From a virus (Duplodnaviria > Heunggongvirae > Uroviricota > Caudoviricetes), in the IMG/VR virus record IMGVR_UViG_3300023371_000071: DNA of 64,000 nucleotides. One strand, 5' to 3'. The notes below the pieces were generated by a model. That model did not search any database, was not told where the DNA came from, and saw nothing but the letters and a program-made list of their open reading frames with translations. This document shows positions 3,403 through 4,019 of the stretch, piece after piece. Both the position numbers and the translations under genes were made by a program. Position 1 is the first letter of the stretch, and every line of letters starts with the position of its first letter.

Positions 3403-3442
3403 TATAAAAGGGAATACCCCGGAAGTCATTTCCGGGGTATTC
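3402..3442. terminator. bidirectional intrinsic terminator between convergent genes
   Basis: gaataccccggaagtcatttccggggtattc perfect hairpin between + gene 2926..3402 and - gene 3426..4019. Confidence 0.65.
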
Positions 3443-4019
3443 CTAATACTGGCAATAGTCCACCAATCGTATTACCAGCAGTGATAATCAAGAGTGCAGG
3501 CAACCATACCAAAATTGACTCTCCTGATGACCAAAAGTAGAAAGCGTCTGCAATACAATGATTGAATCCAGATAAAATAAATGCTGCCACACACCCTGAG
3601 GTAATCCATAAAGGTGTGTCTTTTCGTGTTGCCATTGTCATAAGGGCACCACAGAATATGGATCGCACCCATAGCTCCATATATGGCATATTTAATTTTT
3701 CTCTTCCAACCAAACTTGCATCGCTCAGTAGGTCAATCGTACCTCCCAACAGGGGTATGCATACAAGAACAAGAGCAACTCCAACTAAGTTGCCCGCCCA
3801 AATCCAAGGCATCTGCCACCATTTACGATCGCCTTCGACTAACTGATGTACTTGTCCTGTGTACAGATAAGATTGTGTTAAACGAACACTCAATAGTCCA
3901 AGAGAGAAAAGAATCGCTCCGACTACTGGGTTCGGCGCGAGTAGGTATAATATGCATCCGAGTGCGATGAATGCTCCAGCACGAATTGATTGTACGTGCC
4001 AATTAGTAGGCATATTCAT
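3426..4019 (-). CDS. formate/nitrite transporter (FNT/FocA-like) family channel, short form
   Basis: 197-aa multi-TM ORF; recalled FocA motifs align: AGxFIALG, LFSLGLL (FocA ICFSLGLIL), GNLVGV, SGFNHCIADAF (FocA SGFEHSIANMF), GNTIGGLL; only minus-strand gene in the window. Confidence 0.65.
   Translation of the reverse strand: MNMPTNWHVQSIRAGAFIALGCILYLLAPNPVVGAILFSLGLLSVRLTQSYLYTGQVHQLVEGDRKWWQMPWIWAGNLVGVALVLVCIPLLGGTIDLLSDASLVGREKLNMPYMELWVRSIFCGALMTMATRKDTPLWITSGCVAAFILSGFNHCIADAFYFWSSGESILVWLPALLIITAGNTIGGLLPVLGIPRK

Follow-up and report, generated by a model that had tools for sequence, protein, structure and literature searches.

A single gene transcribed against the direction of its neighbors raises the question of which solute its product carries and what a phage would gain from it. 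The gene lies in a 64,000-nucleotide (nt) stretch of the Caudoviricetes record IMGVR_UViG_3300023371_000071, referred to here as the window. An account prepared without database searches (the sequence-only reading) had described it as an unusually short FocA-type formate channel. Our analysis indicated that the gene encodes an intact formate/nitrite transporter (FNT)-family channel which is not FocA and that short FNTs of this type recur beside nrdD and nrdG in other phages. On balance, we favored the reading that the product, a member of a new short FNT subfamily, acts as a formate/formic-acid channel and supplies phage NrdD and phage one-carbon enzymes. The gene is as follows.

3426..4019, minus strand: short FNT-family channel gene, 197 amino acids (aa), ATG start, uninterrupted open reading frame (ORF), stop codon at 3426-3428

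The three FNT signature segments on which the sequence-only reading had relied were all located in the intact 197-aa product: LFSLGLL at residues 37 to 43, SGFNHCIADAF at residues 150 to 160 and GNTIGGLL at residues 182 to 189. The hidden Markov model (HMM) search which that reading had proposed gave a match to Pfam PF01226 Form_Nir_trans of 86.6 bits against a cut-off of 34.6 (E value of 2e-24), with residues 5 to 191 aligned to profile positions 18 to 234 of 240. Topology was examined with an AlphaFold2 model built from 41 homologues. The complete FNT topology of six transmembrane (TM) helices, some of them broken, was predicted with a pLDDT (predicted local distance difference test) of 94.4 and a pTM (predicted template modeling score) of 0.91. 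The predicted helices spanned residues 7-27, 31-47, 53-56, 59-62, 69-90, 95-109, 113-131, 137-150, 155-164 and 169-191, in the order TM1, 2a/2b, 3, P, 4, 5a/5b and 6, with TM2 broken at the omega-loop and TM5 at the S-loop. In Foldseek searches the best folds in the PDB were all FNTs, with template modeling (TM) scores of 0.79 to 0.85 to FocA, HSC and NirC. When LciA, a bicarbonate channel of algae, and the lactate transporter of Plasmodium were included, the scores ranged from 0.75 to 0.85 and the identities from 20 to 29%. The model was thus equally near to all five proteins, and the fold therefore identified the superfamily and not the substrate. Those FNTs whose structures have been solved form pentamers and conduct small monovalent anions of weak acids, and the window protein would be expected to form a pentamer also. 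No PHROGs family was found for the protein, the INPHARED phage collection yielded only three weak protein matches (to Phass-1, to a 4.6-kb contig lacking annotation and to a Salmonella record), and no near DNA match was found for the first 20 kb of the window.

Conservation of the pore was examined over 41 family members aligned with E. coli FocA. The numbering of the reference FocA sequence was validated against Mukherjee et al. 2017 (PMC5525234), whose 3KCU-numbered tables it matched at 33 of 33 positions. Eight residues were invariant in all 41 members, namely F38, L52, T54, N77, F147, H154, A157 and N183, which correspond to F75, L89, T91, N121, F202, H209, A212 and N262 of FocA. L42 (L79 in FocA) was kept in 40 of 41 members, K108 (K156) was Lys or Arg in 40 of 41, and M127 (V175) was present in 38 of 41. 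Overall, thirteen residues, with all of the key pore residues among them, were invariant in members down to ∼27% identity. The central constriction was formed by F38, F147, H154 and A157, the cytoplasmic slit by L42, L52, T54 and M127, and the Lys of the periplasmic vestibule was K108. The sequence-only reading had allowed for a loss of the two constriction motifs and for a pseudogene fragment. On proper alignment, both constrictions and the central His/Thr pair were conserved, and the deletions relative to E. coli FocA were confined to the N terminus (28 aa), the loops and the C terminus; the window protein is therefore not a fragment. A pseudogene was further ruled out by the intact ORF, the full predicted fold and the presence of the same length in hundreds of relatives.

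These data did not extend to the label of FocA type. Scores against the FocA equivalogs TIGR04060 and NF008069 were 45.5 bits versus a cut-off of 290.1 and 15.2 bits versus 440, respectively, and the NirC equivalog NF008595 gave 31.6 bits versus 293. Using the FocA-specific residues of Table 4 of PMC5525234 (S92, T93, K/R100, L167, N172, E208, N254, T34, L37 and N113), about 10 of 15 signature residues were found to differ in the window protein. At S92, T93, K100, L167 and N172 of FocA it has G55, Q56, G63, R119 and G124, and at E208, N254, T34, L37 and N113 it has N153, A175, W7, Q10 and Q69. Only 6 residues precede TM1, so that the cytoplasmic N-terminal domain of FocA (25 to 32 aa, ∼28 aa in this alignment) is missing. 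PflB probably gates FocA through this domain. The HMM cut-offs and the signature residues ruled out membership in FocA, NirC or YfdC, and the product is an intact FNT-family channel but not FocA.

Published mutagenesis of FocA allowed some of the differences to be placed. K156, T91 and H209 are essential in FocA (PMC9380403), and the equivalents of all three are conserved in the window protein. The N213D mutant of FocA keeps near-native formate translocation, and Asp at this position is the natural state of the window protein (D158). In the same study E208A/Q was tolerated, and Gly was the sole natural variant at N172 (PMC9380403).

The short length, which the sequence-only reading had set against a family norm of ∼280 aa, proved not to be unusual but to be the rule in a large subfamily. 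A word-indexed search returned 57 relatives, all of 113 to 230 aa. An exhaustive profile search returned 5,721 cluster representatives at an E value of ≤1e-3 and 1,105 at ≤1e-30 (clusters at 50% identity), and the top 150 matches were 182 to 270 aa long. One cluster of 53 members comprises 50 or more near-identical variants. The subfamily was defined here by a length of ∼185 to 220 aa, the pattern G-F-x-H-C-I-A-D-A-F-Y, in which position 213 is Asp, and a C-G pair at 171/172. In the window protein these are GFNHCIADAFY and C123-G124, and among the 41 members D158 was present in 37 and G124 in 40. The viral branch comprised 143 IMG/VR contigs, many of 100 to 350 kb. In the bacterial branch, HCIADAFY-type patterns were detected in 509 species-representative genomes, and the best 80 of these were mostly gut or rumen Bacteroidales. 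BFVD held a single short viral member, named automatically as “Formate/nitrite transporter” (A0A8S5NWF3). No published description of short FNTs as a subfamily was found in literature searches.

A single in-frame TAG was present inside conserved sequence in six viral short-FNT genes (L014, L066, L073, L075, L077 and L088; ∼10001-10550), which is consistent with TAG-recoded phages that express the gene. The window itself holds 33 plus-strand tRNA genes (9603-26497), including a 91-nt tRNA with a CUA anticodon (19471-19561; labeled “Pyl” by ARAGORN). This amber suppressor suggests that the phage may reassign TAG, as do phages of the “code 15” clade, of which Phass-1, another carrier of a short FNT, is a member.

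The genes surrounding short FNTs were surveyed by tblastn over 80 IMG/VR loci, which are phylogenetically related. Neighbors were also examined at 80 bacterial loci, a sample obtained with a sub-alignment of Bacteroidales and covering Bacteroidales only. In 39 of the 80 viral loci the short FNT had nrdD and/or nrdG as a neighbor, in every case with the same orientation, and the median FNT-nrdG gap was 41 nt. Three gene orders were observed: nrdD-nrdG-fnt in 27 loci, nrdD-fnt-nrdG in 8 and fnt-nrdD-nrdG in 1; three truncated loci had nrdG alone upstream of the FNT gene. Coding sequences overlapped or abutted in L004, L012, L038 and L049, where the partner genes were confirmed by Pfam. In L049, nrdD (7741-9987) is followed by fnt (9980-10549; PF01226 score of 76.3 bits for its product) and nrdG (10550-11059), and in L038 the ATG of fnt directly follows the stop codon of nrdD. 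Locus L032 had the row fnt-nrdD-nrdG-DUF3310-folD. The linked NrdDs were 24 to 89% identical to the L004 NrdD, which served as the query. Counted by viral FNT cluster, linkage occurred in 11 of 36 when clustering was at 50% identity and in 19 of 49 when it was at 70%. In the clade nearest to the window FNT other than its own (38 to 48% identity), the FNT gene lay directly 3' of nrdD-nrdG and often overlapped nrdG. A neighbor-joining tree, computed without support values, likewise placed the window clade nearest to an nrdDG-linked phage clade. No neighbor recurred across lineages in the 41 unlinked viral loci. The 80 Bacteroidales loci contained no formate-related neighbors, the recurrent ones being housekeeping-like genes or NhaA. 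No description of an FNT-nrdDG linkage in phages came up in literature searches directed at phage FNTs as auxiliary metabolic genes (AMGs) and at FNTs together with NrdD.

The class III ribonucleotide reductase consumes one formate per deoxyribonucleotide, and NrdD is activated by NrdG with S-adenosylmethionine (SAM). In class III enzymes like those of E. coli, L. lactis and T4, formate donates the hydrogen; other NrdD types use thioredoxin (PMC4493059). The P. copri NrdD has been found experimentally to require formate and carries Asn435 where thioredoxin-type enzymes carry a third Cys (PMC11226230). Two linked NrdDs, those of L004 and L049, were compared with these references. Both were closest to the P. 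copri and T4 NrdDs (370, 249 and 345 bits), and the thioredoxin-type NrdD of T. maritima gave a weak match or none. In the L004 NrdD, the residue aligned with P. copri Asn435, where thioredoxin-type enzymes have their third Cys, is likewise Asn (GRGN). By these sequence comparisons, the two NrdDs appeared most similar to the formate-requiring type.

This linkage bore directly on the choice of substrate. A functional FNT channel for another anion (nitrite, hydrosulfide, lactate/acetate or bicarbonate), acting in detoxification, pH homeostasis or rewiring and sitting beside nrdDG through co-inheritance of a module, would accord with the protein being as similar to NirC, HSC, LciA and PfFNT as to FocA and with every substrate-specific equivalog scoring far under its cut-off. 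It would accord also with Gly172, otherwise typical of the uncharacterized YfdC groups (PMC5525234), with the Bacteroidales homologues adjoining housekeeping genes or NhaA rather than formate enzymes, and with the sole viral FNT found in the literature being a nitrite transporter (PMC8115048). However, no nitrite, sulfide or lactate enzymes were found in the window. The linkage, moreover, is tight, with overlapping coding sequences and the FNT gene sitting between nrdD and nrdG in some loci, and it recurs with NrdDs only ∼25% identical to that of L004 and in three gene orders. Drift within a module is hard to credit because so tight a linkage recurs over diverged NrdD clades and gene orders. 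Formate is favored because of this recurrent operon linkage and because it is the one FNT substrate that NrdD consumes. Transport of another anion was hence considered unlikely.

The link to NrdD was hidden from the sequence-only reading because it lies outside the window, in which no nrdD or nrdG gene was found, so that the window gene itself is not an nrdDG-linked FNT. Contigs of 168 to 174 kb carry proteins identical to window proteins, and one of 168.8 kb encodes a 366-aa protein identical to that of window 62449..63549. On this contig, a gene for NrdD (733 aa, with ATP-cone, NRDD and Gly_radical domains) starts ∼9.5 kb beyond the window end. It lies after genes for RecJ, a helicase, PolIII-alpha and guanylate kinase, with the same order of PolIII-alpha and NrdD as in L004. 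The recurrent nrdD-nrdG linkage, together with the NrdD in the phage's own genome, is the strongest link to formate, rather than Fhs or SAM. L173 (9612-19612), which continues this phage beyond the right end of the window, extends the replication and nucleotide module with genes for a RecJ-like DHH protein, a PIF1/UvrD-type helicase, a DAHP-synthase-family protein, GmrSD_N, DNA polymerase III alpha (1284 aa), guanylate kinase and NrdD. In L175 (10001-14191), from a related phage of 173 kb, nrdD is in three pieces, split by an I-HmuI-like homing endonuclease and other inserts, with a LAGLIDADG gene after nrdG. Many database NrdD entries of such phages (P0240-P0359) are N-terminal fragments of 200 to 220 aa.

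Two further genes with a bearing on formate or SAM, already named in the sequence-only reading, were confirmed by Pfam at the positions given there.

45794..47434, plus strand: Fhs, formate-tetrahydrofolate ligase (Pfam FTHFS, 792.9 bits, full length)
26553..27611, plus strand: MetK, S-adenosylmethionine synthetase (all three S-AdoMet synthetase domains match)

The start of MetK was placed at the ATG at 26553 because the upstream extension of the ORF is taken by tRNA-Val (26422-26497). In relatives with FNTs 87% and 61% identical to that of the window, the FNT gene had the same position and the same inverted orientation, and a gene for FolD, the one-carbon enzyme adjacent to Fhs in the pathway, lay ∼8 to 9 kb away. 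The phage thus encodes NrdD, Fhs and MetK, so that two formate enzymes and a SAM maker are present in one phage genome. No pyruvate formate-lyase (PFL) gene, and hence no focA-pflB context, was found in the window. Phage manipulation of formate and one-carbon metabolism was therefore borne out as far as the presence of Fhs and MetK, and of FolD in relatives. The more specific proposal, in which imported formate would feed 10-formyl-tetrahydrofolate and SAM, is a supposition as to direction, as Fhs/FolD could equally run toward formate.

The reversibility of Fhs also admits a formate channel that serves for efflux or equilibration rather than import, either as an ungated, PflB-independent valve against a build-up of formate or acid or as a route of release for formate made by Fhs/FolD or by host PFL. 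The lack of the cytoplasmic N-terminal domain fits with such a valve, and FocA mainly exports formate during fermentation (PMC8914244). However, NrdD and Fhs, the phage enzymes linked to the channel, usually consume formate, and the Lys by which the vestibule draws in formate from outside has been kept. The equivalent of His209 is also kept, while an H209N change renders FocA efflux-only (PMC8914244, PMC12559229). A role mainly in efflux was thus judged to be decidedly unlikely.

The signals flanking the gene were examined for evidence of how it is expressed. As the sequence-only reading had noted, the FNT gene converges on the preceding plus-strand gene (2926..3402); the gap is 23 nt. It diverges from a peptidase-like plus-strand gene at 4186..5262. 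Four putative signals were identified from the sequence, the promoters by consensus match.

4057..4085, minus strand: sigma-70-type promoter of the FNT gene (TTGACA, 17 nt, TAAAAT, TG extension; 11 of 12 consensus positions)
3401..3443, minus strand: intrinsic terminator that ends the FNT transcript (G+C-rich hairpin with a 14-bp stem at 3411-3443, then CTTTTATATT)
4095..4135, plus strand: intrinsic terminator at the other boundary of the cassette (hairpin with a 14-bp stem at 4095..4125, then ATTGATTTTT)
4127..4155, plus strand: promoter of 4186..5262, bounding the cassette (TTGATT, 17 nt, TATAAT, TG extension; 10 of 12 consensus positions)

The −35 TTGACA and the extended −10 element were kept upstream of the orthologues in L001 and in L010, the latter being the lineage with 61% protein identity, despite diverged flanks. 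The FNT terminator hairpin had a folding energy of −25.9 kcal/mol (z = −5.5) and was nearly identical in L001; on the gene strand its 5' arm coincides with the final five codons (GIPRK), and its loop contains the stop codon. Behind the hairpin at 3411..3443, the U-tract of the minus-strand transcript is CUUUUAUAUU. The same hairpin on the plus strand was also strong (−27.5 kcal/mol). The bidirectional terminator of the sequence-only reading was supported only in part, since the hairpin was strong on both strands but a U-tract was present for the minus-strand transcript and absent on the plus strand. The plus-strand hairpin at 4095..4125 (−23.5 kcal/mol, z = −6.7), followed by AUUGAUUUUU, was conserved in L001. 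This terminator would halt plus-strand read-through, which is antisense to the FNT gene, immediately ahead of the promoter that follows on the plus strand. Judged from these signals, the FNT cassette looks like an autonomous “moron”-type unit read by host RNA polymerase.

The isolation of the gene was confirmed by a codon-based six-frame scan of the 64 kb, which gave no other credible minus-strand gene. The remaining minus-strand ORFs of at least 50 aa were shadows of plus-strand genes or of tRNA, except for 35203..35535. This ORF had no Pfam match and was rejected as a second minus-strand gene, being a shadow ORF in a region where two small plus-strand ORFs with their own promoter fit better. 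Synonymous codon usage set the FNT gene (−0.18) apart from 17 of the 18 plus-strand genes tested (+0.12 to +0.36), among them the gene for the second membrane transporter. Recent horizontal transfer was not adopted as the explanation because the gene is old in the lineage, with 61%-identity orthologues at the same place, and because its opposite strand can explain the bias. The bias may reflect strand-asymmetric composition acting on a lone opposite-strand gene.

An inverted “moron”-type cassette with deviant codon usage and without a PHROG family would also suit a protein of FNT descent that has no metabolite-channel role and instead perturbs the membrane, excludes superinfection or times lysis, or else a passenger gene in decay. 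However, the key pore residues are invariant down to ∼27% identity, the fold is predicted confidently, and the gene and its position are kept in lineages at 61% protein identity. Furthermore, there are no lysis genes close by, and the opposite strand can account for the codon deviation. A non-transport role was regarded as highly improbable.

The remainder of the window is phage-like and transcribed almost wholly one way, and encodes gyrase B and A, a DnaB-type helicase, DNA and RNA ligases and RNase H, along with many proteins without known function. The second membrane transporter is a 448-aa protein of the CitMHS/ion-transporter superfamily (9787-11133, plus strand, 70.6 bits), and in L073, L075, L077 and L088 a sodium:dicarboxylate symporter gene (SDF, 280 bits) lies ∼2.4 kb from the FNT gene. 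The FNT cassette is bracketed by genes for paralogous Cys-rich proteins of 563 and 492 aa (1126-2817 and 5183-6661, plus strand) with the motif LCLSIHPLD...NW(S/R)SC, the 492-aa protein being phrog_18912. The Cys-rich family also occurs within 4 kb of the FNT gene in four unrelated viral loci (L058, L066, L090 and L092). At 30779-33250 (plus strand) an 823-aa protein with a Major Vault Protein shoulder (77 bits) and Vault_3 repeats of eukaryotic type, with no PHROG match, is encoded. Other accessory genes specify an SPFH/flotillin protein (42968-44425), two DUF5662 paralogues (38488-39003 and 49618-50247), three calcineurin-like phosphoesterases (34388-35197, 40099-40944 and 42239-42844), two PDDEXK_5 nucleases (13695-14126 and 23775-24218) and a ThiF-family protein (21391-21954), the last three lying inside the tRNA array.

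Taken together, these observations were consistent with the following scheme for a formate channel that supplies NrdD. The carrier would be a phage of roughly 170 kb infecting an anaerobic gut or rumen bacterium. Host RNA polymerase would transcribe the FNT gene of the inverted cassette from its own near-consensus sigma-70 promoter within the early/replication region. The channel would conduct formate/formic acid across the membrane of the infected cell; proton-coupled uptake depends on the His/Thr pair, which has been kept, as has the Lys in the periplasmic vestibule. The infected cell could then draw on external formate, or equilibrate formate without the PflB-gated FocA of the host. Formate would pass to phage NrdD, at one per deoxynucleoside triphosphate (dNTP), and to the one-carbon branch of phage Fhs/FolD. 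Phage MetK could plausibly supply SAM to the NrdG activase, SAM serving also as a methyl donor. Formate as the substrate, net uptake, stoichiometry, the timing of expression and pentameric assembly are all inferred.

Several findings weighed against this scheme. The substrate is not readable from the sequence, with identities of 22 to 29% alike to formate, nitrite, hydrosulfide, lactate and bicarbonate FNTs. None of the eight published FNT subfamilies combines F202, A212 and L79 with Gly172 (PMC5525234). Position 172, where the window protein has the YfdC-like Gly, is a site reported to be important for translocation by FocA, and K191, basic in 96% of FNTs, and the acidic D88 are both lost. 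With respect to flux direction, FocA chiefly effluxes formate in fermenting E. coli. As regards gene context, 41 of the 80 viral copies were unlinked, and none of the 80 Bacteroidales copies lay near nrdDG, fhs or folD; phylogenetic independence is lacking among the viral loci, and the neighbor-joining tree carries no support values. Finally, the window gene lies ∼69 kb from nrdD and ∼42 kb from fhs, with no operon evidence inside the window. The position of the FNT gene varies between lineages, given this distance from nrdD and the lack of an FNT gene after nrdG in the related 173-kb phage.

A broader proposal was also considered, namely, that the short FNTs constitute a ninth, undescribed FNT subfamily and that its phage members are dedicated formate-supply channels for the phage glycyl-radical ribonucleotide reductase. 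We advance this tentatively, as a plausible extension that falls somewhat short of probable. An interaction of FocA with PflB has been described for E. coli, and by analogy the channel and the reductase might make direct contact. The window channel would then have been uncoupled from nrdDG and put under a host-type promoter beside the FolD/Fhs/MetK set. If this proposal is true, the phage genes form a new AMG class, and large anaerobic phages make dNTPs without the pyruvate formate-lyase/FocA system of the host.

Formate is a key interspecies electron carrier, and, to our knowledge, its supply during anaerobic phage replication has not been addressed before. If the channel does supply NrdD with formate, the supply of reductant would be a bottleneck for which large gut and rumen phages bring their own remedy, and membrane transport of formate would join the steps under viral control in anaerobic ecosystems. 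For FNT research, the protein offers a natural minimal channel of ∼190 aa without the regulatory N terminus and with the equivalents of N172G and N213D in their natural state, which can be compared with FocA mutants. A likely annotation trap is also corrected, in that short FNTs are not FocA orthologues.

The window protein was also compared with known systems. The FocAs of E. coli, Salmonella and V. cholerae (PDB 3KCU, 3KLY, 3Q7K and 9G49) have the same fold (TM score of 0.79 to 0.85). They have in common with the window FNT the constriction (F75, F202, H209 and A212), the slit (L79, L89 and T91, with V175 as Met), K156, N121 and N262, and formate is the likely common substrate. In contrast, FocA has 285 aa and is only 22 to 25% identical to the 197-aa window FNT, in which the loops are shortened, and the gene context of FocA is focA-pflB whereas the partner of the short FNTs is nrdDG. 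NirC (nitrite) and HSC/FNT3 (hydrosulfide; PDB 4FC4 and 3TDO) share with the window FNT a basic residue at 167 (R119) and Gly at 92, and NirC showed the highest identity of the solved FNTs (28 to 29%). However, N172 and E208 are not kept in the window FNT, and a nitrite or sulfite reductase context is lacking. The YfdC-alpha and -beta groups (PMC5525234) share Gly in place of Asn172 in the open-state cytoplasmic slit, as found in 40 of 41 short-FNT members. They differ in having V/I/M at 202, F/Y at 79, E at 92 and an N terminus of 42 to 55 aa, where the window FNT has F, L, G and 6 residues before TM1, so that Gly172 (G124) is the only one of these features shared.

Among viral proteins, the only match in the structure databases was UniProt A0A8S5NWF3 of Siphoviridae sp. 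ctTnV63 (BFVD), which has the same short form (191 aa, TM score of 0.70, 24% identity) and owes its name to automatic annotation; no published study of this protein or its subfamily was found in literature searches. The “focA”-nirA AMGs of cyanophages (Gazitua et al. 2020, PMC8115048) provided a parallel, as there also a phage FNT lies beside an enzyme that consumes the transported anion, with a sigma-70-type promoter. The cyanophage FNT is described as having a conserved C-terminal regulatory region, is 86% identical to the Prochlorococcus host gene and is assigned to nitrite, with a nitrite reductase as its partner (PMC8115048). The short FNTs, in contrast, form a divergent subfamily that has nrdDG as its partner and is spread widely among large phages of the gut and rumen. 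The FNT superfamily and the AMG concept were thus known already, and the short subfamily and its partnership with nrdDG are new.

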